The notes beneath the pieces were generated by a model. The model was not told the DNA's origin, made no database searches, and saw only the letters and a program-made list of their open reading frames with translations. A stretch of DNA of 39,313 nucleotides from a virus, in the UHGV virus genome UHGV-0145328; one strand, 5' to 3'. The translations under genes were made by a program, and so were the position numbers. Below are positions 1,826 through 27,126 of this stretch, piece after piece (the stretch's first letter is position 1; every line of letters starts with the position of its first letter).

Positions 1826-3502
1826 CTAAGCAACATGTAGTTCATCGTTGGCGGAAGTGGCTGCTTTGCGCTCCTGCTCAATAGCTAGAGACTCTCTATA
1901 TTCTTTCGCCTCTGCAAACATTGTCCAGTGGGCGTTGATGTTCATGTCTTCAATAACTGATTTGATTTCTTTTAAATTTACGTTAAAAAACTCTTTTCGT
2001 GAGTTAATTTTATTGACCTGCTTTTCGTTGAAAACTTTATGCAGATGGTTTTCTAATGATGGTGCATCATCACTATAAATCATCGCATGAACATCGAACG
2101 AAAAAGGAACACTAGCATCTCCGAGTTCACGAACACGATCAAGTGGTTCAAGGCGGCGTGTCATTCCAATTTTATATACATCTTCGCCAAATGAACCAAT
2201 ATTACTAATGATATAGACGTGGCCTGATCTGGTTTGTTGAGCCATAGAAATAGCTCGTTGATTTTTAGCTTCAGCTTCTTCATATTTTAACTGTAGTTCA
2301 GCTATTTTTTGCTCTAAAGCTAAGCGTTGTTCTTCATTTGCAAGCATAAGTTCTTTCGTTGCTTTATTTATAGCTTGCTGAATAGCTTTTTCTTCTTTTT
2401 CAGCTTCTTTTATCGCTTTTTCATATTCTCTACGAGCTCTTTCCTCTTCACGAAGCTGTTCTTTAATCCTTCTTTGCTCTTCTTTTTCTTCGAGCATAAT
2501 TTCATTAACTGCTACACCCCATTTTAGCTCGTTGAGTCTTGCCTGAAGATAGATGTCACTTATTTTTGCGGACCTAAAGGCAGAGCCATTGTAATTTACT
2601 AGTTGAAATGCATCTTTTATTTCTTGGGAAAGTTTTCCAAAATTGTTGTGTTTGACTTTTGATAAAATACTGTCAACTCTTCCATTGAAGGCATCCAAAA
2701 CAAAGTTTATGGCAGTATTACGCCTGTTTTGCTCAACATAATCACACGAAGCAGCTTTATTAGTTTTTATTAATGATTTGGTTAACTCTCTGGCTTTTTG
2801 TAATTCCTTGCCTGCATCTGTAAATTCATAATTTTCTGCCAGCTCATCAAGTACACTACGGTTAGGGATGATCCATTCATCACCATAACCTTCAATTTTA
2901 TTTTTCATTGATTTTGCAACTGCTTCATATTTTTCTGCAAACTCTTTAGCTTCATATGCTGAACCAGCAATCTCCTTTGCTCTTTCTTCTGCATCAGAAA
3001 TAATTTTTACTGCATTGTCATTAGCATTTGAGATTAGCTCATTTGCTTTATTATTAGCATTATCAAGACGTTCTTTGGCTTTCAGGCGTGCATCGCGAGC
3101 GTCTTTGGTGATTGCTATAGCTTCGCTATTAGCGTTGCTTATTGTCATCTGAGCTTGATAATTTGCTTCGTTTACTGTTTTAGCCGCCTTAATTTGGGCT
3201 TCATCTATTTTTTGCTTGGCTATTGAGTCCGCATTTTTTATCTTATTCTCTGCATCCATTACTGCGCTGTGCAATTCTTCGTATTGCCACAATGGTGCTG
3301 CTCGCCCTTCAAGCTCTGATAATTCTCGTACGGTCTGTGCTAGTTTTTCTTGATTTTCAATCAGTTGGTTAGAAAGGGCTATGTTGTTAGCTGTCAGGTT
3401 ATCTATAGCCGCTTTGTGTTTTTTACTTTGTTTAAATAATATTACAGCTAGAACAGGGGCGAGAAATGCTAATAAGAGTATAACGATGGCAAATGAATTC
3501 AT
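1826..3502 (-). CDS. Membrane-anchored coiled-coil protein with DUF4041-like region and C-terminal T5orf172 (GIY-YIG-like) domain; cargo gene
   Basis: N-terminal hydrophobic helix (SFAIVILLLAFLAPVLAVILF); long K/E/A-rich heptad regions; C-terminal block GHVYIISNIGSFGEDVYKIGMTRRLEPLDRVRELG...VPFSFDVHAMIYSDD typical of T5orf172; visibly AT-rich; co-oriented with cI and int. Confidence 0.7.
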   Translation of the reverse strand: MNSFAIVILLLAFLAPVLAVILFKQSKKHKAAIDNLTANNIALSNQLIENQEKLAQTVRELSELEGRAAPLWQYEELHSAVMDAENKIKNADSIAKQKIDEAQIKAAKTVNEANYQAQMTISNANSEAIAITKDARDARLKAKERLDNANNKANELISNANDNAVKIISDAEERAKEIAGSAYEAKEFAEKYEAVAKSMKNKIEGYGDEWIIPNRSVLDELAENYEFTDAGKELQKARELTKSLIKTNKAASCDYVEQNRRNTAINFVLDAFNGRVDSILSKVKHNNFGKLSQEIKDAFQLVNYNGSAFRSAKISDIYLQARLNELKWGVAVNEIMLEEKEEQRRIKEQLREEERARREYEKAIKEAEKEEKAIQQAINKATKELMLANEEQRLALEQKIAELQLKYEEAEAKNQRAISMAQQTRSGHVYIISNIGSFGEDVYKIGMTRRLEPLDRVRELGDASVPFSFDVHAMIYSDDAPSLENHLHKVFNEKQVNKINSRKEFFNVNLKEIKSVIEDMNINAHWTMFAEAKEYRESLAIEQERKAATSANDELHVA

Positions 3503-3522: not shown

Positions 3523-4119
3523 TTAATTCGAGACTATTGTACTTCTTATACAAGCAACCACTTCAATATCAGAAAATGCACATTCAAAGCTATTCTCTGC
3601 TGTTGTAATTTTAATCATTCCTTTAGGAAGCCTTGTGATTTTTCGAATGGAATAGGTTCCGTCGATATTGATTAACCAGTTTCCATCAAGTACTTCAGAA
3701 AATTTTTGATCACAAATGTATGTGACGAGTCCATCCTGAACAACAATTGGTGATGAAAGGTTTGCAGGAAGAAATGATGAATCGAAGACATATGAACCGT
3801 CTTCAATCATTTTGCCTGCGGCAAGGCGAAACTTAACAAGCTCTTCTGTAGCTGCTGTCAGCGAGCTTTGCTTAAGGCCTTGTCCGGTAGTTAACCATTT
3901 GAGGGAGGTTCCTGTTTCAAGAGCACATTGGATTATCCAGTCAGCAGGAAATGTATCCCGCAAATACCTGTTCGCTAGTGTGCTTTTTGATACTTCCAAG
4001 TGATCAGCTAAAGCCTGTCGTGTCGTAAAGCCATAGGCTTCGACTAATCGCTCAATCGCAGCCTTACCACCTTTATTGGGATTTATTTTGATCTCACTTG
4101 GGTACTTTGATGTTGACAT
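3523..4119 (-). CDS. cI: Immunity repressor CI (186-type)
   Basis: 198 aa with N-terminal HTH-like region, divergent from apl/cII; position between int and apl matches the 186 lysogeny module. Confidence 0.75.
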   Translation of the reverse strand: MSTSKYPSEIKINPNKGGKAAIERLVEAYGFTTRQALADHLEVSKSTLANRYLRDTFPADWIIQCALETGTSLKWLTTGQGLKQSSLTAATEELVKFRLAAGKMIEDGSYVFDSSFLPANLSSPIVVQDGLVTYICDQKFSEVLDGNWLINIDGTYSIRKITRLPKGMIKITTAENSFECAFSDIEVVACIRSTIVSN

Positions 4120-4468: not shown

Positions 4469-4978
4469 ATGTTTGATTACCAAGTTTCCAAACATCCACA
4501 TTTTGATGAAGCCTGTCGTGCATTCGCACTGCGCCACAATCTGGTGCAACTGGCAGAACGTGCGGGCATGAATGTGCAGATTCTGCGGAACAAGCTGAAC
4601 CCAGCTCAACCTCATTTATTAACCGCACCAGAAATCTGGCTGCTTACCGATCTGACTGAAGATTCAACGTTGGTAGATGGTTTTCTGGCACAGATTCATT
4701 GTCTGCCATGTGTACCGATTAATGAGGTAGCAAAAGAGAAACTGCCGCATTACGTCATGAGCGCAACTGCAGAGATCGGGCGTGTTGCAGCAGGTGCGGT
4801 ATCTGGTGATGTAAAAACTAGTGCCGGTCGTCGTGATGCTATCAGCAGCATTAACTCTGTAACACGACTGATGGCGCTGGCTGCTGTTTCATTGCAAGCC
4901 CGTTTACAGGCTAATCCTGCGATGGCGAGTGCAGTTGATACCATGACTGGCCTTGGTGCTTCATTCGGTTTGCTGTGA
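4469..4978 (+). CDS. cII: CII lysogeny-establishment activator (186 CII-like)
   Basis: 169 aa from [37 protein letters not shown]…; closely resembles 186 CII as I recall it. Confidence 0.8.
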
Positions 4979-6269: not shown

Positions 6270-7123
6270 GCACCATCCTGAAATGGGCGGGAAATAAAAC
6301 CGCCATTATGCCAGAACTGAAAAAATACCTTCCTGCTGGCCCGCGACTGGTTGAACCTTTCGCGGGTTCCTGTGCTGTGATGATGGAAACGGATTATCCC
6401 AGCTATCTGGTTGCGGATATTAATCCTGATTTAATCAACCTCTATAAAAAGGTTGCCGCTGATTGTGAATCGTTTATATCTCGCGCCAGAGTTTTATTTG
6501 AGATCGCAAACAGGGAGGTGGCTTATTACAACATAAGGCAGGAGTTTAACTGCTCAACTGAAATTACTGATTTCATGAAAGCGGTATATTTCCTGTATCT
6601 CAATCGTCACGGTTACCGTGGTTTATGTCGCTATAACAAGAGCGGGCATTTCAACATTCCCTACGGTAATTATAAAAATCCGTATTTCCCTGAAAAAGAA
6701 CTTCGCACATTTGCAGAAAAAGCCCAGCGAGCAACGTTTATCTGCGCCAGCTTTGATGAAACGCTGGCGATGTTGAAGGCGGGAGATGTGGTGTATTGCG
6801 ATCCGCCATATGACGGTACGTTTTCCGGCTATCACACTGATGGTTTCACTGAAGATGACCAGTATCACCTGGCATCCGTTCTTGAACATCGGTCATCAGA
6901 AGGACATCCGGTCATTGTTTCTAACAGTGACACATCCCTGATCCGTTCGCTGTATCGCAATTTTACTCACCACTATATCAAGGTAAAACGCAGCATCGGT
7001 GTGGCAGCTGGCGAGGGTAAATCAGCAACAGAAATCATTGCTGTTTCCGGGCCGCGCTGCTGGATGGGATTTGATTATTCGCGTGGCGTGGATAGTTCTG
7101 CCGTGTACGGAGTACGTGCATGA
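6266..7123 (+). CDS. dam: DNA adenine methyltransferase (Dam-like, GATC type)
   Basis: [11 protein letters not shown]… N-terminus, FAGSCAV AdoMet-binding motif and DPPY catalytic motif; start overlaps the stop of the preceding gene. Confidence 0.85.
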
Positions 7124-9534
7124 GTCATGCCGATATGAACAACTGCTGCGGCTTTAACGAGGCTGCCGCAGCATTCTCATGGAACAGCCCGAAAAAGGCC
7201 ATTAACCCTTATCTGGACCCGGCGGAAGTTGCGCCGGTTTCTACGCTTTCAAACCTGATCACTCTGTACGCTGCCGATAACGAGCAGGAACAACTGCGCC
7301 GCGAGGCACTGAGTGATCAGGTCTGGGAGCGTTATTTCTTTAATGAATCACGTGATCCTGTCCAGCGCGAAATGGAGCAGGATAAGCTCATTAGCCGGGC
7401 AAAGCTGGCGCATGAGCAGCAGCGTTTTAATTCAGACATGGTCATTCTGGCGGACGTCAACGCCCAGCCTTCCCATATCAGCAAGCCGCTGATGCAACGT
7501 ATTGAATACTTCAGCAGCCTGGGCAGGCCAAAGGCTTATTCCCGCTATTTACGTGAGACGATTAAGCCATGTCTGGAACGACTGGAGCATGTACGCGACA
7601 GTCAGCTATCTGCATCTTTTCGCTTTATGGCAAGCAATGAAGGGCTGGACGGCCTGCTGATCCTGCCTGAAATGAGTCAGGATCAGGTGAAACGCCTGTC
7701 CACCCTGGTAGCTGCGCATATGAGTATGTGCCTTGATGCAGCTTGTGGTGATTTGTATGCCACCGATGACGTTAAGCCAGAAGAAATCCGCAAGACATGG
7801 GAAAAGGTGGCAGCGGAAACCCTGCGTCTGGATGTCATCCCACCTGCGTTTGAGCAACTCCGTCGGAAAAGAAACCGCCGTAAACCCGTGCCCTATGAAC
7901 TCATTCCGGGTTCGCTGGCGCGTATGTTGTGCGCCGACTGGTGGTATCGGAAATTATGGAAGATGCGTTGCGAATGGCGGGAAGAGCAGTTGCGCGCTGT
8001 TTGCCTGGTCAGCAAAAAAGCATCTCCTTATGTCAGCTATGAAGCCGTGATGCATAAACGTGAGCAGCGCCGTAAGTCGCTGGAGTTTTTCCGTTCTCAT
8101 GAACTGGTGAACGAAGACGGCGACACGCTGGACATGGAGGATGTGGTAAACGCCAGCAGCAGCAACCCTGCGCATCGCCGCAATGAGATGATGGCCTGTG
8201 TTAAAGGTCTGGAGCTTATCGCGGAAATGCGCGGTGACTGCGCCGTTTTCTACACTATCACCTGTCCGTCGCGTTTCCATTCCACGCTAAATAACGGCAG
8301 ACCAAACCCGACCTGGACAAACGCGACGGTAAGACAAAGCAGCGATTATCTGGTCGGCATGTTTGCTGCATTTCGTAAGGCGATGCACAAAGCCGGGTTG
8401 CGCTGGTATGGCGTGCGGGTGGCTGAGCCGCATCATGATGGCACAGTTCACTGGCACCTGTTGTGTTTCATGCGCAAAAAAGACCGCCGTGCCATCACTG
8501 CATTACTGCGTAAGTTTGCCATCCGTGAAGACCGCGAGGAGCTGGGCAATAACACTGGGCCGCGCTTTAAGTCTGAGTTGATTAACCCGCGCAAAGGAAC
8601 GCCGACAAGCTACATCGCGAAATATATCAGTAAGAACATTGACGGTCGTGGTCTGGCTGGCGAGATCAGCAAGGAAACGGGTAAATCTCTGCGTGATAAC
8701 GCTGAATACGTGAATGCCTGGGCGTCTCTGCATCGTGTTCAGCAATTCCGCTTCTTTGGTATTCCGGGGCGTCAGGCTTACCGTGAACTTCGCTTGCTGG
8801 CTGGTCAGGCGGCAAGGCAACAGGGTGACAAAAAAGCAGGTGCGCCGGTACTGGATAACCCGCGTCTTGATGCCATTCTGGCTGCTGCTGATGCTGGTTG
8901 TTTTGCCACCTACATCATGAAGCAGGGCGGCGTACTGGTTCCCCGTAAATATCACCTCATCAGAACCGCTTATGAAATCAACGAAGAGCCGACCGCCTAT
9001 GGCGATCACGGCATTCGTATTTATGGCATCTGGTCACCCATTGCAGAGGGCAAGATCTGCACTCATGCAGTGAAGTGGAAAATGGTTCGTAAAGCCGTTG
9101 ACGTTCAGGAGGCGGCAGCCGACCAGGGCGCTTGCGCCCCTTGGACTCGTGGCAATAACTGTCCCCTTGCTGAAAATTTGAACCAACAAGGGAAAGACAA
9201 ATCAGCTGATGGAGATACCAGAACGGATATCACCCGCATGGATGACAAGGAGTTGCACGATTACCTGCACAGTATGAGCAAAAAAGAGCGCCGGGAACTG
9301 GCTGCAAGGTTACGCCTGGTGAAACCGAAACGGCGTAAAGACTACAAACAGCGAATTACAGACCATCAGCGACAGCAGCTCGTCTATGAACTGAAGTCCA
9401 GAGGATTTAATGGCAGCGAGAAAGAGGTCGATTTACTCCTTCGCGGCGGCAGTATTCCGTCAGGAGCAGGCCTGCGTATCTTCTATCGGAACCAGCGTTT
9501 GCAGGAAGATGATAAGTGGCGAAACCTGTATTAA
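7120..9534 (+). CDS. A: Replication initiation protein A (rolling-circle HUH endonuclease, P2 gpA-like)
   Basis: 804 aa containing [11 protein letters not shown] (HUH motif); position after the early genes. Confidence 0.85.
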
Positions 9535-9628
9535 TTACGCGGGTTAACAATTCGTGCTCTTAATAATACCAGGCATATCAGGCTGATGAACGTAAAAAAA
9601 CGTTTTACATCAGTAAGATTATTATATA

Positions 9629-9644
9629 CTGTAAATATAAACAG
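9629..9644. promoter_or_regulatory. LexA box (CTGT-N8-ACAG)
   Basis: CTGTAAATATAAACAG matches the SOS-box core exactly, about 45 bp upstream of the ATG at 9688. Confidence 0.7.
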
Positions 9645-9687
9645 TGGTTATGTATACAGTATTGCTTGTGGTGTCATAGGAGGAAAG

Positions 9688-9876
9688 ATGCAGGACTATT
9701 TTTTGGAGTCTTTGAAGCTCCAGCGCATTGATTTTTTTCTTAAGCTTGTAGCGGCTAGTGAGTGTAGTGATGAAGAGAAGGGGCTGGCTTTGCAGTGGGT
9801 TTCTGAACTGACAGATGAACTCATGGCAAAAATCAGAACCCACGAATACAACCGCTCAATGGATGTCATCAGCTGA
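9688..9876 (+). CDS. Small protein in LexA-controlled operon (possible Tum/antirepressor N-terminal part)
   Basis: 62 aa from the ATG at 9688 with strong AGGAGGAAAG RBS, downstream of the LexA box. Confidence 0.5.
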   Translation: MQDYFLESLKLQRIDFFLKLVAASECSDEEKGLALQWVSELTDELMAKIRTHEYNRSMDVIS

Positions 9877-9886
9877 GGTGACTTTT

Positions 9887-10120
9887 ATGCGCATTGAAAT
9901 AATGATCGATAAAGAGCAGAAGATTAGCCAGTCTACCCTGGACGCCCTTGAATCCGAGCTTTACCGCAATCTGCGCCCCCTATATCCAAAAACGGTAATT
10001 CGCATCCGCAAAGGTAGCTCTAACGGTGTGGAACTGACCGGACTGCAACTGGACGAAGAAAGAAAACAAGTGATGAAAATTATGCAGAAGGTGTGGGAAG
10101 ACGACAGCTGGCTGCATTGA
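9887..10120 (+). CDS. DinI-like protein
   Basis: 77 aa (MRIEIMIDKEQ…LDALESELYRNL…MQKVWEDDSWLH) with the size and pattern of DinI; RBS GAGGTG upstream. Confidence 0.7.
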   Translation: MRIEIMIDKEQKISQSTLDALESELYRNLRPLYPKTVIRIRKGSSNGVELTGLQLDEERKQVMKIMQKVWEDDSWLH

Positions 10121-10233
10121 TTTTGTCAATAGACGCTTGTTTTTACTAATCAAAAAGGGTTACATATGAGTGAGAGGCGATGTCAATCAGATATCGCCTT
10201 GTTTTTTGTCAAGAAAAGAATAATAGGCTAAAA

Positions 10234-10911
10234 ATGAAAATTAATAATGTAGCGTTACCAATATCTCTTGCTGTAATCCTAACTGGTTGCGTGCCACATG
10301 CTTCTAACCGAAATATCACTGCTATTGAAGTGGTGAAGCCTGCTATTGGGCAAAGTGCTACCGCCTACATGGGCGATCCCATTATCACATCTGCTACTGG
10401 ATTTAAAACGGACGTACTAGAACTTGGTGCGGCTAATGGTGCATTGTCTTCTATCGCTGCTGGTACATATTGCAGTGAGGGGAATGGAATTTACCGCAAT
10501 TATCATAACCCTCAAGCTGTTGCGTTAAAAAATCTCTATGGGCAAATCGGTAACTATGTTGATTATGTTAGTTACGATGCTGCAAAAAATGAGATATCAC
10601 CGCCAAATGGTACTTCTTATACTGCATCAGAAATTTCTATCAAACGTGTTCCTGATGGGCTGTGTCGAGTTAGTAACTCATTGGTTAAGACTATCGAATA
10701 CAATGGAAATGCAGGCGGTGTAATGAAGTTCACCTATCGTGAATTTGCAAACGATATGGCTCGTGCAGCATTTACAACAGATTTTTCTGTAGATTCTAAG
10801 GGAAGTGACGTTATCGCTTACAAAGGTGCCAAGTTCAAAGTGAACAAGGCTGATAACTCGTCTATTTCTTATACAATTATTTCTGGCTTTGACAAGGCTG
10901 TCACGTTCTAG
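10234..10911 (+). CDS. Lipoprotein of unknown function (moron)
   Basis: Signal peptide plus lipobox (MKINNVALPISLAVILTGC); AT-rich; followed by a hairpin terminator. Confidence 0.65.
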   Translation: MKINNVALPISLAVILTGCVPHASNRNITAIEVVKPAIGQSATAYMGDPIITSATGFKTDVLELGAANGALSSIAAGTYCSEGNGIYRNYHNPQAVALKNLYGQIGNYVDYVSYDAAKNEISPPNGTSYTASEISIKRVPDGLCRVSNSLVKTIEYNGNAGGVMKFTYREFANDMARAAFTTDFSVDSKGSDVIAYKGAKFKVNKADNSSISYTIISGFDKAVTF

Positions 10912-11013
10912 GTTTCACGCTTACTGAGTATGTTACGATTTTGCACATTCTGCATAAACGCGCATGTCTATGCTGCATGAGATCGCATGATCGTTTGAGG
11001 ATCTTTTGTGTTA

Positions 11014-11040
11014 AGGCCCGCCAGTTCTGGCGGGCTTTTG
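11014..11040 (+). terminator. Rho-independent terminator
   Basis: GCCCGCC / GGCGGGC stem with 6-nt loop followed by TTTT. Confidence 0.6.
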
Positions 11041-11084
11041 CGTAGATCATGCAGGTGCATGAAAACCACTACATAAAGCGGGCA

Positions 11085-11103
11085 GGCGTGGCGGGGATAC
11101 GAG
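11085..11103. other. Candidate cos cohesive-end site
   Basis: GGCGTGGCGGGGATACGAG resembles the 19-nt P2/186 cohesive end as I remember it (GGCGTGGCGGGGAAAGCAT for 186); recalled, not verified. Confidence 0.35.
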
Positions 11104-11255
11104 CGCGCGTTAAGCCATATAAGAGTTATATATTGATTTGATTGCTGGACATACATACAGTATCGCTCTATCATCTAATAAATCTTAGGGTATTTGACAA
11201 TGTTTGGATAAAATGGAACCTAACTTATTCATAATCCGCTAAACAGGGATGTCAG

Positions 11256-12170
11256 ATGCCATACCAATTGGTAGAGCTTAGCCCCGTAGCTAACGATCTT
11301 GAACAGTTAGGAACCAAAGAGAAGTTTTGGTTCTATTTCTCCGATGACACTGTAAATTTGCAGTTGTTTAAGTACTCTAGGCCAGGTACTGGCGAGCATT
11401 GGTCTGAAAAGTGTGCTGCTGAGTTATGTCATTTGCTTAACATTCCACATGCTAGCTATGATTTGGCGCGATACAATGGTCGATTCGGTGTGGTGACTCA
11501 GAATATCATTCCATCTGGTTTCCGGATGGTAATGGGAAATGAAGTGCTTCACAGTTCGACATTCGATTATCCTGGGCCTTTACAAGCCGGGGAAAAGCCG
11601 GTAAGGGTCAGAGAACACACTGTCACAAGGGTCTTGGGTTGTTTAGATAGGGAATCTATCAAGCCTCCTCCGAGTGTATATGATCTAACCGGGCTAAATG
11701 CAGCAGATGTATTTTGTGGATATTTGATGCTCGATGCACTTGTGAGTAATCAAGATCGCCACCATGAAAATTGGGCAATCATGCTTAACAATGAAACTGG
11801 TGAGCAGTTTTTGTGTCCAACATACGATCATGCCGCTAGTTTAGGAAGGGAGATGTTAGATGATGAGCGTAACGAACGGCTTAATACTAAAGATAAAAAT
11901 CGACAAATCCCATGTTTTGTAAGAAAAGCTCGCTCTGAGCTATTCAAAGCAAAAACTGATAAAAAGCCCTTGCTGACTGTTGAAGCATTTCAACATGCAG
12001 TTGAAGGGAGAGTTGCCGCTCGCGACCATTGGTTAGGTAAGTTGAGCGTTTTAACAGAAGATTCCATTACAGATGTGTTTAACCAAGTGCCTTCATCGTG
12101 TATATCCGACAGTGCACGTAGATTTGCAACGTTAATGGTAATGGAAAATCGCAGAAGGTTACTAGAATGA
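11256..12170 (+). CDS. HipA-like Ser/Thr kinase core-domain protein
   Basis: 304 aa with LGTKEKFWF (cf. HipA VAGAQEKT), VSNQDRHHENWAIM (cf. HipA catalytic GATDGHAKNFSV) and CPTYDHAASLG (cf. HipA TPFYDIIS); AT-rich cargo. Confidence 0.6.
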   Translation: MPYQLVELSPVANDLEQLGTKEKFWFYFSDDTVNLQLFKYSRPGTGEHWSEKCAAELCHLLNIPHASYDLARYNGRFGVVTQNIIPSGFRMVMGNEVLHSSTFDYPGPLQAGEKPVRVREHTVTRVLGCLDRESIKPPPSVYDLTGLNAADVFCGYLMLDALVSNQDRHHENWAIMLNNETGEQFLCPTYDHAASLGREMLDDERNERLNTKDKNRQIPCFVRKARSELFKAKTDKKPLLTVEAFQHAVEGRVAARDHWLGKLSVLTEDSITDVFNQVPSSCISDSARRFATLMVMENRRRLLE

Positions 12171-12907
12171 CTAATACAAACTCCGTTTACGTCGCATGGC
12201 AGGCACCAGATACCAGAGACTGGCATGTTGTTGGTAACTTGCAAGAGCGCAAATCGGGGTATGTTTTCAGGTATACCAAAGGTGCTCTTAAATCTTCTAA
12301 ATTTACAAAGTTTAGCGGCATGAGTGATGTTCGTGAAACTTATGTATCGGAAGAATTGTTTCCTCTTTTTAAAAATCGCCTTTTATCACCGAGACGTCCA
12401 GAGTATCCGAGTTTCATTAAATGGCTTGGATTTGAAGAAGATAAGGTAAATCCTATCGATATTCTTGCTCGCTCGGGAGGCTTACGAAGCACTGATCAGC
12501 TGCAGATTTTCAAAAAAATTGATTTTGATTCTGATGGTAACTTTGAGCATTTTTTCTTCTTACATGGACTTGGTTACTTGAATAGCTTAGCTAATGCTCG
12601 TGTATCTGAATTGAAACCGGGGCAAATTTTGCGTCTTTGCTTGGATCTTCAAAATGAATACGATGGGGATGCTGTTGTCGTTCGTGCAGATAAACCAGCT
12701 GAAATCGTTGGTTACTGCCCTAGGTATTTAAGTAATGACATCAAGAAGATGTTATTGGATGATCCAAAATCAATCACTTTAACGGTCGAAAAGATTAGCG
12801 ATGATGCTCCTCATAACTATCGGTTATTATGTAAATTATCAGGGGTACTAAGCCAAGCCTGTCAATCGACGCTGATTCCTCAAGATGAGTTTGAACCTAT
12901 TGAGTAA
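12167..12907 (+). CDS. Partner protein of the kinase; N-terminus possibly HipA N-subdomain-like (HipS-like), C-terminal domain unknown
   Basis: 246 aa; start overlaps the kinase stop (ATGA); N-terminal VYVAWQAPDTRDWHVVGNLQERKSGYVFRYTKGAL loosely resembles the HipA N-terminus. Confidence 0.5.
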   Translation: MTNTNSVYVAWQAPDTRDWHVVGNLQERKSGYVFRYTKGALKSSKFTKFSGMSDVRETYVSEELFPLFKNRLLSPRRPEYPSFIKWLGFEEDKVNPIDILARSGGLRSTDQLQIFKKIDFDSDGNFEHFFFLHGLGYLNSLANARVSELKPGQILRLCLDLQNEYDGDAVVVRADKPAEIVGYCPRYLSNDIKKMLLDDPKSITLTVEKISDDAPHNYRLLCKLSGVLSQACQSTLIPQDEFEPIE

Positions 12908-12941: not shown

Positions 12942-13982
12942 TTATGGGGCTATATCTAGCGAGTAGGTATCAAACCGTATCGCCTCCTTGCCAAGCCAAT
13001 CATTCATCTCCTGTAATCGCTTTTGTAGTGGCATTAGCTCATTTCGGACGAATACACGGCTTGCCTTCTCCACATCCCCAAACCCCCCGACATTATTAGG
13101 CATAATCCCCATCATTTGCGGTGGCACACGATGCGCCGCCATCATGTCATCCCGGCTCACGTTCTTGATATTCAAAAACTCATCCTTCGCTGCGACCTCT
13201 GACAACGGGATAATCTGAAGCCCGTCCTTTTTGCCGTTAGGCGAGTACATAAACAGGTTGCGGAAGTTGCCTGGACCTTTGGCGCTTTTCATCGCGTTGC
13301 GGAGGTTGTTCACATCCTCCTGGTTCTGCGCGGCATCGGTCATATACATGATGAAGCCTGCATGACTGCCGTTAATGTAATACTTGCGGCGGAACAGCGT
13401 GGCAGACTCGTTGAGCAGGGCGGATGGAATAGCAGAAAGATAACCGGGCAGGCCGTAGATCTCCTGGTTGATGTCCGGTTCCATCAGATGAAAGATGCTG
13501 CCTTTCGTGAACTGATATGGCTGCGTGGTCATACCGTATTGCACAAACCAGTAGGTATCCAGGTCTAACCCGCGTCGGGTGTATTTTGCCAGGGCAGGTT
13601 CAAGGGCGATAACTTCACCGAAGCGGTTCGTGCGTTTCTCCAGGTAGGCGTTACCAAATACCAGATAGTCCTGCACAAAACGCGAAAAAGCCTGCTGGCT
13701 GAGCAGCGGGTGAGGGATGTAGGTGCTGGTCAGAATGTTGCACTTTACTGCAATCGGGGAACTATGATGCACGGCAGCGCGGAAGGTGCGCGCCAGTCCG
13801 TCAAAGCTGACGGGCGGTTCATACCAGCGGTCCATCTGTACGCATTCCACATAATCCAGCAGTTCTCGGCGGTCCAGAACAGGAACGGGATCGCCGAAGC
13901 TGAATGCTTCGGCTGTAGTTTGACTTTTAAGCTGGATCTGTTTCGTCGCCGCAGCGCGGTTCTTCTTACTCTTTCCCATCAA
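12942..13982 (-). CDS. Q: Portal protein (P2 gpQ-like)
   Basis: 346 aa; size and position next to the terminase large subunit match P2 Q. Confidence 0.85.
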   Translation of the reverse strand: MMGKSKKNRAAATKQIQLKSQTTAEAFSFGDPVPVLDRRELLDYVECVQMDRWYEPPVSFDGLARTFRAAVHHSSPIAVKCNILTSTYIPHPLLSQQAFSRFVQDYLVFGNAYLEKRTNRFGEVIALEPALAKYTRRGLDLDTYWFVQYGMTTQPYQFTKGSIFHLMEPDINQEIYGLPGYLSAIPSALLNESATLFRRKYYINGSHAGFIMYMTDAAQNQEDVNNLRNAMKSAKGPGNFRNLFMYSPNGKKDGLQIIPLSEVAAKDEFLNIKNVSRDDMMAAHRVPPQMMGIMPNNVGGFGDVEKASRVFVRNELMPLQKRLQEMNDWLGKEAIRFDTYSLDIAP

Positions 13983-21741: not shown

Positions 21742-23070
21742 TCAATTGGTAAAAATTCTACTCTGCTCACCATAGCTGTCCTTTGCTTCGTTAATCAGAT
21801 CCTCCCATGGCCATTTTATGGTTACATATTTTCGATAAATTAAAATGGTTCTGTCGATAGCAGTGACCTCATCAGTTGCATCATTGTAGGAAAGAACTAA
21901 CCCTCTATCGTCACTATCAACCTGTAACTCTTCAATTTTTTGAAGTACAGTTCGCAGATTCCCTTTTAATATTCGACTTTGTCTTCTTGACGCAATTTTA
22001 AAAATGGTATCTAACTCTAATCCTTGAATGAGTTCTTTATCGGATGAGTCCATTATTACAGCCATGGCATGAGCATAAATGCCAGTGGTTTCTGTTCTTT
22101 TACGTATTCCTGATGATATATCTTTAGCAAATTTTTGATATCGAGAATTTAATTGTTCAGCATATTTCATGGCTGCATCAACGAATTTTTCTTGATCATC
22201 TAACATCGTTAATGTTGTACATTCCTCATCAATTCCTGTCTCGTCAAGAATGTTTAAGGCTAGTTGTTGTAAAATCCCAACATTACCATAGCAATCATCA
22301 AGGATGCATCTCTTTATATGATCTGAGAACTTAACTTTTAAAGTTTCTGATCCACTTATTATTACTTGTTCAAGATCGGCTCTAGACCATGATATGGGAA
22401 TTTCTTCTATGCGAGAACCAAGGTCAGAATTTAAATAAATTAGTAGGTTTGTTTTTGTCCAAACACCAATGATTACGAAAAAACAACCATAATCCCAAAG
22501 CGCCTTTAAGTCATAAGCAAATATTTGTCGTTCACGAGTGTTTAAGTAGTGAAAATCTTCAATAACTACTTTTCTTCCTGCTTCGTTAATTATTTCTGCA
22601 ATAAATCTCAAATCATTAATATCTTGACCAACATTTCCTTTTTTTATTACCTCCTCTTCAGAGGTCTCAAGTCCAAATTTAACCTTTAGTTTTGCTATAA
22701 GACCAATGCCTCCTGCAGCAGAGCCCTCCATTACGCCTTTAATTGTATCTTTTTCGGTTCTCTCTAGCACAAGGCTTATACCTAATTGAGATAGAATATC
22801 TATATATATATCTAAAACGGTTGTCTTTAATCTGCATTGTACAACAATAGCATTAGGTATGTTCTTTTGTCTTAACCATGACTTACCACATTTGGATTCC
22901 CCTCTTAAGGCGAGATGTATTGGTCGGCGTAATTTTCTACTGATTTCCTTATCAAGATTTCCTCTGTCTACATATGAATCAGCAAGAATCGTTGGTGAAA
23001 TACCAAAAACTTCGTGTGTTTGTTTCTTCATGATGGCCTCACTATCCGTTTTGTACTGTTTATCACACAA
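21742..23070 (-). CDS. P-loop NTPase (AAA+/STAND-like) of unknown function; antisense cargo between S and V
   Basis: Walker A GESKCGKS and Walker B-like VVIEDF; 442 aa; AT-rich; opposite strand to the flanking late operons. Confidence 0.65.
   Translation of the reverse strand: MCDKQYKTDSEAIMKKQTHEVFGISPTILADSYVDRGNLDKEISRKLRRPIHLALRGESKCGKSWLRQKNIPNAIVVQCRLKTTVLDIYIDILSQLGISLVLERTEKDTIKGVMEGSAAGGIGLIAKLKVKFGLETSEEEVIKKGNVGQDINDLRFIAEIINEAGRKVVIEDFHYLNTRERQIFAYDLKALWDYGCFFVIIGVWTKTNLLIYLNSDLGSRIEEIPISWSRADLEQVIISGSETLKVKFSDHIKRCILDDCYGNVGILQQLALNILDETGIDEECTTLTMLDDQEKFVDAAMKYAEQLNSRYQKFAKDISSGIRKRTETTGIYAHAMAVIMDSSDKELIQGLELDTIFKIASRRQSRILKGNLRTVLQKIEELQVDSDDRGLVLSYNDATDEVTAIDRTILIYRKYVTIKWPWEDLINEAKDSYGEQSRIFTN
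23052..23069. promoter_or_regulatory. Late-promoter dyad TGT-N12-ACA upstream of V
   Basis: TGTACTGTTTATCACACA about 50 bp upstream of the V start; overlaps the 5' end of the antisense NTPase gene. Confidence 0.5.
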
Positions 23071-24945: not shown

Positions 24946-25543
24946 TCTGCTGCCACCGGGTTCAACGCCACTGGAGCGCCGACTGGCGCAAACCTGCAAC
25001 GGGATTTCTGATCTGCAGGTGTCACTGCGTGACTTGTGGAATCCGGCAACCTGTCCGGTCAGTTTCCTGCCTTATCTCGCCTGGGCGTTCTCTGTGGATC
25101 GCTGGGACGAGGGCTGGACAGAAAGCGTCAAACGCCAGGTAGTGAAGGATGCTTTTTATATTCATCAGCACAAAGGAACCACCAGTGCCGTACGGCGGGT
25201 GGTGGAGCCGTTCGGCTTCCTGATCCGCATTATTGAGTGGTGGCAGACCGGAGAAACACCGGGCACGTTTCGCCTGGACATTGGTGTGCAGGACCAGGGC
25301 ATCACTGAAGATACCTATCTGGAACTTGAGCGACTGATAAGCGATGCCAAACCATGTAGCCGTCACATGATCGGCATGTCCATCAATCTGCAGACCAGCG
25401 GCCCGCATTGGGTGGGAGCCGTCAGTTATCTTGGCGAAGAAATCACGATCTATCCGTATATCAACGAAACAATTATTTCCGGCGGCACCGCGCATGAAGG
25501 CGGGGCGGTCCATGTTATTGACACAATGAGAGTGAATCCATGA
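24938..25543 (+). CDS. I: Baseplate / tail-fibre attachment protein (P2 gpI-like)
   Basis: 201 aa; synteny. Confidence 0.75.
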   Translation: MNSLLPPGSTPLERRLAQTCNGISDLQVSLRDLWNPATCPVSFLPYLAWAFSVDRWDEGWTESVKRQVVKDAFYIHQHKGTTSAVRRVVEPFGFLIRIIEWWQTGETPGTFRLDIGVQDQGITEDTYLELERLISDAKPCSRHMIGMSINLQTSGPHWVGAVSYLGEEITIYPYINETIISGGTAHEGGAVHVIDTMRVNP

Positions 25544-27126
25544 GCACAAAATTTTATACCCTGCTGACGGATATTGGCGCGGCGAAACTTGCCAGCGCCG
25601 CCGCGCTCGGTGTGCCGCTAAAAATTACCCATATGGCGGTGGGCGATGGCGGCGGAGCATTGCCAACGCCGGACGCAAAGCAGACGGCACTGGTAAATGA
25701 GAAACGCCGGGCTGCGCTGAATATGCTCTATATCGACCCGCAGAACAGCAGCCAGATTATTGCTGAACAGGTGATCCCTGAAAATGAGGGGGGTTGGTGG
25801 ATACGTGAAGTGGGTCTGTTTGATGAGTCCGGGGCATTGATTGCCGTAGGCAACTGCCCGGAAAGCTATAAGCCGCAACTGGCTGAAGGCAGCGGGCGCA
25901 CCCAGACCGTGCGCATGGTGCTGATTACCAGCAGTACGGACAATATCACCCTGAAAATCGACCCTGCTGTAGTGCTGGCAACCCGTAAATACGTGGATGA
26001 TGAAGTCCTGGAATTAAAGCTGTATGTGGATGACCAGATGAGAAACCACATTGCCGCACAAGATCCTCATACCCAGTATGCGCAGAAACATAATCCGACA
26101 TTTACCGGAGAACCAAAAGCGCCGACGCCTGCAGCAGGAAATAACACCACGCGGATTGCGACCACTGAGTTTGTTCAGGCCGCTATTACTGCTCTGATTA
26201 ACGGTGCGCCAGCCACGCTGGATACACTGAAAGAAATTGCCGCAGCCATTAACAATGACCCGAAATTCAGTACCACCATTAACAATGCGCTGGCACTAAA
26301 AGCGCCGCTGTCGAGTCCGGCACTCACCGGAACGCCAACAGCACCTACTGCGGCGCAGTCGGTCAACAATACACAGATTGCCACTACGGCTTTTGTGAAA
26401 TCGGCGATTGCAGGAATGGTGGGTTCTGCACCTGCGGCACTGGATACACTGAACGAACTGGCGGCGGCACTGGGGAATGATCCGAACTTTGCCACGACAA
26501 TGCTTAATGCGCTGGCAGGTAAACAACCGCTGGACAATACGCTTACCAATTTGAGTGGAAAGGATGTAGCTGGTCTTCTCACATACCTTGGTTTGGGAGA
26601 AGGTTCGGCATTACCCGTTGGCGTGCCTGTTCCGTGGCCTTCCGCCACTCCGCCAACAGGCTGGCTGAAATGCAACGGTGCCGCTTTTTCTGCTGAAGAA
26701 TACCCGGAACTGGCAAAGGCTTATCCGACAAATAAATTGCCTGATTTACGTGGTGAGTTTATTCGTGGCTGGGATGACGGGCGTGGAGTGGATGCGGGAC
26801 GTGCCTTGCTAAGTCTTCAGGATGACTCTTTTGAAGCGCACAGGCATGAGTCCTTTTTTTACGCGGGTATTTCTCGCAATGAAACACCATTAAAAAATCT
26901 TCCAAGTTCAGACGAGATGCTGACTTTAAGTTCTACAACTAATGCCTTGTCCCCGGACGGTATTGATGCCACTAATTCGTTAATTGGTAATGATGATTAC
27001 AACTGTCTGATTGAAGGAAATAAAAATAACAAACGAACAGCGACGGGGTTGAGTACCAGTATTGTCGGTGCAGCAGAGACACGCCCACGTAATATTTCAT
27101 TTAATTACATTGTGAGGGCTGCATGA
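25540..27126 (+). CDS. H: Tail fibre protein (P2 gpH-like); C-terminal part inside an invertible segment
   Basis: 528 aa with repetitive Ala/Thr-rich middle; the C-terminus after ...TYLGLGE is replaceable by the antisense segment at 28123..28469. Confidence 0.85.
   Translation: MSTKFYTLLTDIGAAKLASAAALGVPLKITHMAVGDGGGALPTPDAKQTALVNEKRRAALNMLYIDPQNSSQIIAEQVIPENEGGWWIREVGLFDESGALIAVGNCPESYKPQLAEGSGRTQTVRMVLITSSTDNITLKIDPAVVLATRKYVDDEVLELKLYVDDQMRNHIAAQDPHTQYAQKHNPTFTGEPKAPTPAAGNNTTRIATTEFVQAAITALINGAPATLDTLKEIAAAINNDPKFSTTINNALALKAPLSSPALTGTPTAPTAAQSVNNTQIATTAFVKSAIAGMVGSAPAALDTLNELAAALGNDPNFATTMLNALAGKQPLDNTLTNLSGKDVAGLLTYLGLGEGSALPVGVPVPWPSATPPTGWLKCNGAAFSAEEYPELAKAYPTNKLPDLRGEFIRGWDDGRGVDAGRALLSLQDDSFEAHRHESFFYAGISRNETPLKNLPSSDEMLTLSSTTNALSPDGIDATNSLIGNDDYNCLIEGNKNNKRTATGLSTSIVGAAETRPRNISFNYIVRAA
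26588..26602. repeat. Left inversion crossover site (15-bp TTGGTTTGGGAGAAG)
   Basis: Exact inverted copy at 28470..28484; encodes GLGE in H and in the antisense alternative fibre segment. Confidence 0.65.

Follow-up and report, generated by a model that had tools for sequence, protein, structure and literature searches.

A prophage lipoprotein gene in the tum-cos slot of a Fels-2/186-type phage as a candidate SOS-coupled envelope exclusion factor

Introduction

In the temperate phage 186, the region that leads up to the cohesive end site runs in the order p95 (LexA), tum, t95a, orf97, t95b and cos, and the record of this phage describes t95a as 'partial termination of p95 transcript' and orf97 by 'expression from plasmid blocks 186 infection'. 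The present study concerns a lipoprotein gene (positions 10234-10911) that occupies the same slot, with the same operon order, in UHGV virus genome UHGV-0145328, a stretch of 39,313 nucleotides (hereafter, the window) that represents an E. coli chromosome segment in which an entire Fels-2/186-type prophage of the P2 family is flanked by ybjL-ybjM-grxA. Both orf97 and the window gene are non-essential cargo, and the codon count of orf97 is that of the maximal open reading frame (ORF) in the window (~240). Our analysis favours, with a probability of roughly 0.4, the reading that the window lipoprotein may be an SOS-coupled envelope exclusion factor against incoming phage, perhaps sparing progeny as well; this estimate is drawn from analogy of position and from the context rather than from homology or experiments.

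Several other systems can be compared with this locus. T5 Llp and the Cor proteins of phi80, N15 and T1 are phage-encoded envelope exclusion proteins, Llp being an outer-membrane lipoprotein, and Llp is reported to be made at the onset of the lytic programme and to block superinfection and the loss of progeny (PMC9586334). Lambda Bor/Iss and F TraT are mobile-element lipoproteins that change surface properties, and TraT is similar in length to the window protein. The P22 map shows exclusion genes, SieA and the immI-region cargo, next to the antirepressor module. The function of SieA in exclusion has been described (PMC10883804). The nearest relative is STM2726 of Fels-2 (WP_000700647.1, phrog_1353), which belongs to the same family as the window protein, shows no difference from it in this comparison, and is annotated everywhere as a hypothetical protein or as being of unknown function. 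The gene is therefore already known to the databases as a hypothetical protein; new here are its assignment to the SOS operon as an orf97 analogue, the tum-cos slot as a cargo site, the breadth of the family with its recurrent capture by unrelated phages, and the link to aryl-polyene clusters.

Results

The lipoprotein gene closes the tum operon, which LexA controls; it is located past a partial terminator and uses a terminator of the phage backbone (Table 1). In the p95-like promoter, the first half of the LexA box TACTGTAAATATAAACAGTG (9627-9646) doubles as the -10 element, TACTGT. The box contains a perfect CTGT-N8-ACAG at 9629-9644, recurs in four diverged lineages and can be aligned with the p95/LexA site annotated in 186. 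The second gene of the operon encodes a DinI/Tum-like protein that is 41% identical to the C-terminus of 186 Tum, and the hairpin that follows it stands where 186 has its partial terminator t95a, being kept in the 88-100% lineages with compensatory stem changes. No convincing promoter for the lipoprotein gene itself was found in the window lineage, where the sole candidate (10206-10235) overlaps the ATG, and an Rfam scan over 9400-11400 found nothing. As a separate observation, an imperfect second LexA-like half-site, GGTTATGTATACAGTAT (9646-9662), stands right after the perfect box, and it is this portion to which the one LexA site of 186 corresponds in the alignment.

The transcript of the SOS operon likely ends at the GC-rich hairpin at 11015-11042. 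This terminator belongs to the backbone, since the inserted cassette lacks it and prophages with an empty slot have it, so that the terminator which the original prediction had assigned to the gene as its own is also present in prophages without the gene. The cohesive end GGCGTGGCGGGGATACGAG (11085-11103) matches the annotated cos of 186 at 14 of 19 bases, and the right end of 186 aligns with the window up to 11084, in agreement with the suggestion that the gene lies next to a cos region. The gene had further been placed between the SOS operon and a cos-like site; it does adjoin cos, but it is not a separate unit and belongs to the SOS operon as its last gene. The cos site parts the lipoprotein gene, which is rightmost in the linear phage genome, from the variable defence hotspot at the left end. 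In position, namely as a distal LexA/tum-operon gene past a partial terminator and adjoining cos, the gene is of the Orf97 type, and in sequence it is not: homology to 186 Orf97 was ruled out (BLASTP E 4.5), and the window gene is a non-homologous replacement in the orf97 slot.

Expression data exist for the Fels-2 operon. In S. Typhimurium TA100 (Fels-2+) exposed to the DNA-damaging mutagen MX, all three genes STM2726-STM2727-STM2728 were upregulated at p<0.05 by 2.6-14.8-fold, with STM2727 at 14.8-fold and listed with the LexA regulon (PMC2225428). This range fits read-through of a partial terminator. In lysogens of a related Salmonella prophage, tum was the most abundant prophage transcript (PMC7067206). 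A different arrangement was observed in a lineage at 79% identity (L053/L055, ~4930-4965), where the hairpin is absent and a promoter-like TTGATG-17-TATGAT precedes the gene instead, which suggests, as far as the sequence can tell, that this lineage may have switched from SOS read-through to autonomous expression.

The coding sequence of 678 bp specifies a 225-aa precursor, and the start called by the Prokaryotic Genome Annotation Pipeline is identical (WP_000700647.1). The ORF of 243 aa originally described for this gene is indeed present as the maximal ORF of 243 codons (10180-10911), and the product encoded at 10234-10911 is the shorter protein of 225 aa. The upstream start was ruled out, as its ATG at 10180 sits inside the terminator stem 10174-10200 and is not conserved, all homologues starting at the equivalent of 10234.

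The N-terminus of the precursor reads MK-INNVALPISLAVI-LTG followed by the cleavage point and C, that is, a 14-residue hydrophobic stretch and then the lipobox L-T-G-C (codons 10279-10290); the residues up to cleavage, MKINNVALPISLAVILTG before the cysteine, form a textbook lipoprotein signal. All three elements looked for, namely a positive n-region, a hydrophobic h-region and the pattern [LVI][ASTVI][GAS]C, are present. Cys19 is invariant in alignments of 22 and 79 sequences, the strict lipobox pattern is matched by 134 of the 165 full-length family members, and the ORF and lipobox are intact at every locus examined, so the classical lipoprotein signal seen at the outset is well founded. The residue at position +2 after Cys19 is Val, with Ala, Val or Ser in most relatives and Asp in none of those listed; by the +2 rule the lipoprotein should go to the outer membrane. 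The AlphaFold2 model is all-beta with a predicted local distance difference test (pLDDT) score of 87. As to composition, the GC content is 40.7% in the ORF, 39.4% in the cassette that carries it, 50.3% in the window and 52.8% in gpA, in keeping with the description of the gene as AT-rich.

The ratio of nonsynonymous to synonymous substitution rates (dN/dS) was 0.04-0.15 against orthologues 79-99% identical, with dS up to ~3. Judged by these rates, the gene is under strong purifying selection and is a real gene, far beyond chance; these ratios and the presence of the exact protein on at least 1000 contigs together argue that it is not a chance ORF.

The gene is part of an inserted cassette that begins immediately past the tum stop (10121), ends at ~10961 and brings the upstream hairpin, not the downstream terminator. 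The adjoining backbone segment 10962-11060, with the terminator hairpin and the cos flank, was found in 489 E. coli genomes, 50 of which carry the lipoprotein gene; in AR_0017 and STEC306, which have identical DinI proteins, the tum stop lies ~80 nt from this segment and the slot is empty. In E. coli A14 (L079 2452-3122), the slot between tum and cos holds two other hypothetical ORFs of 71 and 151 aa. Since A14 carries different ORFs there, this slot can be counted as a separate, small site for cargo. Measured against the moron concept (Hendrix/Juhala), the gene shows presence and absence between adjacent genes and a deviant composition, and it has no promoter and terminator of its own as an autonomous unit. 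The label of moron given to it therefore holds for the polymorphism (50/489) and the composition (39% vs 50% GC), but not for autonomous expression.

The ~50 P2-like loci from IMG/VR and GenBank all share one order, namely gpA, small ORF, DinI, lipoprotein, cos, variable cargo and portal, and it holds even where the lipoprotein is 79-88% identical. The cargo between cos and the portal gene measures 0.4-3.6 kb and differs by locus; at loci whose annotation was read, it comprises a reverse transcriptase (4LV2017), a TIR-domain gene (Ec1120), STM2723.1 (Fels-2) and the PDC-M03 pair (window). This cargo starts directly after the 25-nt GGCGTGGCGGGGATACGAGCGCGCG at the equivalent of 11085-11109, which showed one single substitution among the loci L001-L079 with the 12-nt cos core, L002 having no exact core match. 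Therefore, the left junction of the hotspot is the cos site itself. The lipoprotein gene, on the opposite side of this site and thus rightmost in the packaged genome, falls outside the classical P2 hotspot.

The window protein matched phrog_1353, whose function is not annotated, with E 3.1e-105 (residues 1-223 of 225 on profile positions 1-230 of 230). STM2726 of Fels-2 is its orthologue, with 99% amino-acid identity at the same genomic position. The DNA is 99-100% identical in Fels-2, in many P2-like prophages and phages of K. pneumoniae (4LV2017; ST258, ST11, ST512), in Salmonella RE2010 and in 50 complete E. coli genomes, and the identical protein is carried by phages and prophages of three genera (those of E. 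coli, Klebsiella and Salmonella). When 1.84 billion cluster representatives were searched with a profile, 2434 proved to be relatives at E <= 1e-3, of which 1256 reached E <= 1e-10, the family clusters being counted at 50% identity. Nearly all of them are lipoproteins of 200-240 aa; the named ones, from gamma-, beta- and alpha-proteobacteria and one planctomycete, are annotated 'hypothetical protein' or 'lipoprotein'. The conserved core is the C-terminal ~85 residues, common to phage and chromosomal members, with Y168, R169, E170, R177, D187, K197 and N208 invariant or nearly so; the alignment of the diverse family is too divergent for pattern scanning.

Scans of the lipoprotein against Pfam, NCBIfam and PADLOC gave no meaningful match and no Pfam family at E <= 0.1; PADLOC-DB v2 includes the PD-T4, PD-T7 and PD-Lambda models. 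For 50 diverse relatives, Pfam gave no consistent match either. The PHROG scan of the window protein gave phrog_1353, one marginal family of no annotated function and nothing else, a profile search of PDB sequences gave nothing below E 1, and a profile scan of genome contigs returned a single locus. The absence of a family that could be named, as remarked from the start, was thus upheld with phrog_1353 as the sole assignment. Searches of the literature on STM2726 yielded a 2007 microarray paper alone, and the accessions, phrog_1353 and prophage-lipoprotein phrases gave nothing on the family. A lipoprotein among the defence systems of Vassallo et al. goes unnamed there, and with no match in PADLOC-DB v2, no relation to it was found. 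In a protein collection clustered at 90% identity, the lipoprotein cluster (10234-10908; 1023 members) is represented by the branched-chain aminotransferase IlvE of Proteus; this is a clustering artefact in which two unrelated proteins are mixed, and it is the probable reason that identical sequences were missing from the result of an initial homology search.

The genomic context of the relatives varies. Orthologues at 54-58% identity sit in small serine-recombinase islands; an AbiC-like gene was called in the islands L006-9, and an ORF of another locus (L063) has, in a reading by eye, an N-terminal motif resembling an OLD/AAA ATPase. Among distant phage relatives, at 24-31% identity, the gene lies directly after Arc-Arc-Ant-Rha and before the tape-measure gene in K. 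aerogenes siphoviral prophages, adjoins HicAB, Arc/Mnt and an ORF6N antirepressor in a Providencia prophage, and stands between the tail chaperone and the tape-measure gene in Acinetobacter phages and prophages, once directly after pRha. Moraxella phage Mcat28 and a Mu-like Neptuniibacter prophage also carry relatives.

Table 1. Positions of the lipoprotein gene, of the operon and prophage features around it, and of its homologues in chromosomal clusters (positions refer to the window unless a locus is named).
Feature	Position	Strand	Description
Lipoprotein gene	10234..10911	+	225-aa precursor; signal peptide 10234-10287; Cys19 codon 10288-10290; mature protein 207 aa, all-beta
Cargo cassette	10121..10961	+	~840 bp, 39% GC; from alignment with the empty E. 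coli AR_0017 prophage and A14
p95-like SOS promoter	9604..9646	+	-35 TTTACA 9604-9609; 17-nt spacer; -10 TACTGT
Small ORF, first gene of the SOS operon	9688..9876	+	62 aa; Fels-2 STM2728; phrog_698
DinI-like/Tum-type gene	9887..10120	+	77 aa; Fels-2 STM2726.1/STM2727; Pfam DinI E 1.3e-22; phrog_189
Terminator-like hairpin	10174..10208	+	GAGGCGATGTC-AATCA-GATATCGCCTT then GTTTTTTG; between tum and the lipoprotein gene
GC-rich hairpin	11015..11042	+	GGCCCGCCAG-TTCT-GGCGGGC then TTTTGCG; ~105 nt past the lipoprotein stop; conserved cos-proximal backbone
cos	11085..11109	.	19-nt cohesive end (11085-11103) and conserved GCGCGC
Integrase	691-1743
CI	3523-4119
gpA	7120-9534
Portal gene Q	12942-13982	-
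Cluster homologues	L081 6001-6651; L084 5001-5636; L085 5001-5621		Between the last ketosynthase and the phosphopantetheinyl transferase genes

Discussion

Envelope-level superinfection exclusion, one of the two roles raised for this gene at the outset, is the best available hypothesis. It gains support because the same slot of 186 holds orf97, noted as blocking 186 infection, and the recurrence of homologues as phage cargo beside antirepressor or Rha genes and in islands with an AbiC-like gene also speaks for it. The adjacency to Arc/Mnt/Ant modules in K. aerogenes and Providencia, which concerns a handful of loci without a statistic, resembles the placement of SieA; SieA itself differs, as it is an inner-membrane protein with no similarity to the window protein.

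In the mechanism that we propose, the precursor would be processed by signal peptidase II and sorted by the Lol system to the outer membrane, as predicted because the +2 residue is Val, not Asp. In the lysogen, a leaky LexA-repressed promoter and read-through of the hairpin would keep the lipoprotein at a low level, and the SOS response would trigger Tum-mediated induction with strong synthesis. The beta-rich domain in the envelope would then close the induced cell to further phage through a block at adsorption or at a later step, and the lipoprotein may also prevent the loss of released progeny to cell debris; it would thus be a functional analogue of the sequence-unrelated 186 Orf97. As for the target, a conserved envelope component appears more likely than a single variable receptor protein, since the C-terminal domain is kept from phages to chromosomal lipid clusters and the identical protein occurs in three host genera, which argues against the masking of one host-specific receptor protein.

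Such a target would also separate the window protein from Llp and Cor, to which it had first been compared. Llp and Cor target one TonB-dependent receptor, whereas the window protein has the same sequence in phages from three host genera; Klebsiella phage Kp4878-2, the sole Klebsiella fibre compared, has a different tail-fibre tip. Llp and Cor have ~60-80 aa as against 207 aa in the mature window protein, and their genes lie beside receptor-binding or tail genes, whereas the window gene lies beside tum and cos, ~15 kb from the tail fibre gene of the window (25540-27126). With no match to an exclusion family among the PHROGs and no receptor-binding gene adjacent, the likeness to Llp and Cor was abandoned as a family assignment and kept as an analogy.

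A number of observations weigh against a role in exclusion. Orf97 of 186 has no sequence similarity to the window protein, and its translation shows, by eye, N-terminal hydrophobic segments that look membrane-spanning, and no lipobox. The expression study gives a fold-change range for the operon and no separate value for STM2726 (PMC2225428), and SOS coupling is not universal, given the 79% lineage in which a promoter-like element takes the place of the terminator. No experiment on the STM2726/phrog_1353 family was found in the literature searched. Further, the family is not exclusive to phages: full-length homologues (27% identity, E 8e-20) occur in Rugamonas, Massilia and Undibacterium, and the copies in Leminorella, Erwinia and Glycocaulis look chromosomal, so a conserved biochemical activity unrelated to phages may be involved.

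In Rugamonas, Massilia and Undibacterium, three genera of the Oxalobacteraceae, the homologue is a fixed member of an aryl-polyene-type cluster with the order MMPL, DUF3261, ketosynthase, dehydratase, ketoreductase, ketosynthase, homologue and phosphopantetheinyl transferase. Homology to ApeA, the lipoprotein of the aryl-polyene cluster of E. coli CFT073, was tried and ruled out, as the signal peptide alone aligns. Aryl-polyene lipids are located in the outer membrane (PMC8253772).

The conservation of full-length homologues in such clusters is an argument for a second explanation, in which the lipoprotein would be a lysogenic-conversion or envelope-remodelling factor that binds or handles an outer-membrane lipid or a conserved envelope component and benefits the host without excluding phage, with serum or antimicrobial resistance, biofilm formation or the organization of lipopolysaccharide (LPS) and other lipids as possible outcomes. 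The polar invariant residues in the C-terminal ~85, shared by phage and chromosomal members, suggest a conserved ligand and are consistent with this, as is the identical protein in prophages of three genera. Such a factor would be like Bor or TraT in outcome, not in ancestry: Pfam, which holds Bor and TraT models, gave no match to either family, with none for the window protein at E <= 0.1 and none consistent for the 50 relatives. Bor/Iss and TraT are also constitutive in the carrier state, whereas the window gene is in a LexA-controlled operon, and expression coupled to SOS at induction fits a long-term host-benefit trait poorly. As the gene moreover recurs by antirepressor and immunity modules and in islands with an Abi-like gene, and the sole characterised occupant of the tum-cos slot is an infection-blocking protein, we regard a role in conversion as possible and rather doubtful.

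The position in the LexA/Tum operon, with co-induction by DNA damage, would equally suit a helper in the lytic cycle of the phage itself, which might serve efficient progeny release, prevent inactivation of progeny by re-adsorption to debris (as proposed for T5 Llp as its second role) or help to disrupt the outer membrane. In two unrelated siphoviral prophages, the gene shares its strand with antirepressor or Rha genes and comes directly after them, and Llp provides a precedent of early-expressed receptor blocking (PMC9586334). The gene is dispensable, however, as ~90% of the related E. coli prophages lack it with flanks otherwise alike; it matches no spanin, holin or endolysin family in Pfam or PHROGs and lies in the early/SOS region, not among the late genes. 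P2-like phages adsorb to the LPS core, and a periplasm-facing lipoprotein could hardly mask the LPS core on debris. An auxiliary function in lysis or release is consequently unlikely.

Returning to exclusion, a more specific form of it can be derived from the chromosomal relatives: because these belong to gene clusters for the export of aryl-polyene lipids, a lipid of the outer membrane may be what the phage copies act on, for instance LPS, which P2-type phages use as receptor. This would be a lipid-level, SOS-triggered superinfection exclusion distinct from Llp/Cor masking and from SieA/Imm injection blocks. Under this proposal, an unnamed family of outer-membrane lipoprotein domains with a new fold and with no Pfam model or solved structural relative would have been captured repeatedly by P2-like, Mu-like and siphoviral phages and brought under their induction control, past the genes of the antirepressors Tum, Ant or Rha. 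Taken as a whole, we consider this proposal speculative and improbable.

That the lipoprotein is a third component or sensor of the neighbouring PDC-M03 pair (a HipA-like kinase and a HIRAN protein) might be thought from the distance of ~345 bp, the same strand and a similarly low GC content. However, cos lies between the two and places them at opposite ends of the packaged genome, and 2 of ~50 loci pair the lipoprotein with HipA/HIRAN, the others having varied cargo, among it a reverse transcriptase, a TIR gene and STM2723.1, or almost nothing in that place. Based on these co-occurrence data and the intervening cos, and with no PADLOC match for the lipoprotein, membership in PDC-M03 is highly improbable and effectively refuted. 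A decaying or functionless passenger ORF, for which the lack of a known function and the optional presence of the gene might be cited, is scarcely credible given a dN/dS of 0.04-0.15 with dS to ~3, conserved motifs across 2434 clusters and an ORF and lipobox intact throughout.

If exclusion is true, a new and widespread family would join the short list of envelope exclusion proteins of Gram-negative bacteria, and the tum-cos slot of 186/Fels-2-type phages would be a second, SOS-timed cargo site for envelope defence beside the P2 hotspot. A phenotype would also bear on the host range of therapeutic phages, because the identical protein is present in very common prophages of K. pneumoniae (ST258, ST11 and ST512 among them), Salmonella and E. 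coli. The aryl-polyene link offers a handle on the biochemistry of an unnamed family of >2,400 sequence clusters. If there were no effect on phage, the gene would be an ordinary hypothetical prophage lipoprotein.

Other candidate defence genes were observed in the same prophage. The PDC-M03 candidate defence pair at 11256-12907 consists of a HipA-like kinase (E 2e-122) and a HIRAN-domain protein (E 7e-93) and is preceded by a LexA-box-like TGCTGGACATACATACAGTAT (11143-11174), which coincides in part with a promoter-like TGGACA-17-TATCAT. L033 and L035, whose copy of this cargo is 91% identical, retain the box as TACTGGACATGTATACAGTAT, and this candidate system may be SOS-regulated, as its upstream region would indicate. 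Between the integrase and CI genes, a 35-38% GC island, the third defence cargo site of the prophage, carries at 1826-3502 (-) the gene of a 558-aa protein with DUF4041 and T5orf172/MUG113 domains that matches PD-Lambda-1 (E 2e-120). Among the late genes, an island of 34-35% GC holds a 442-aa ORF at 21742-23070 (-) with a match to PDC-S59 (E 2e-197), a candidate defence family, and this ORF probably marks the second P2 hotspot, at the Z/fun position.

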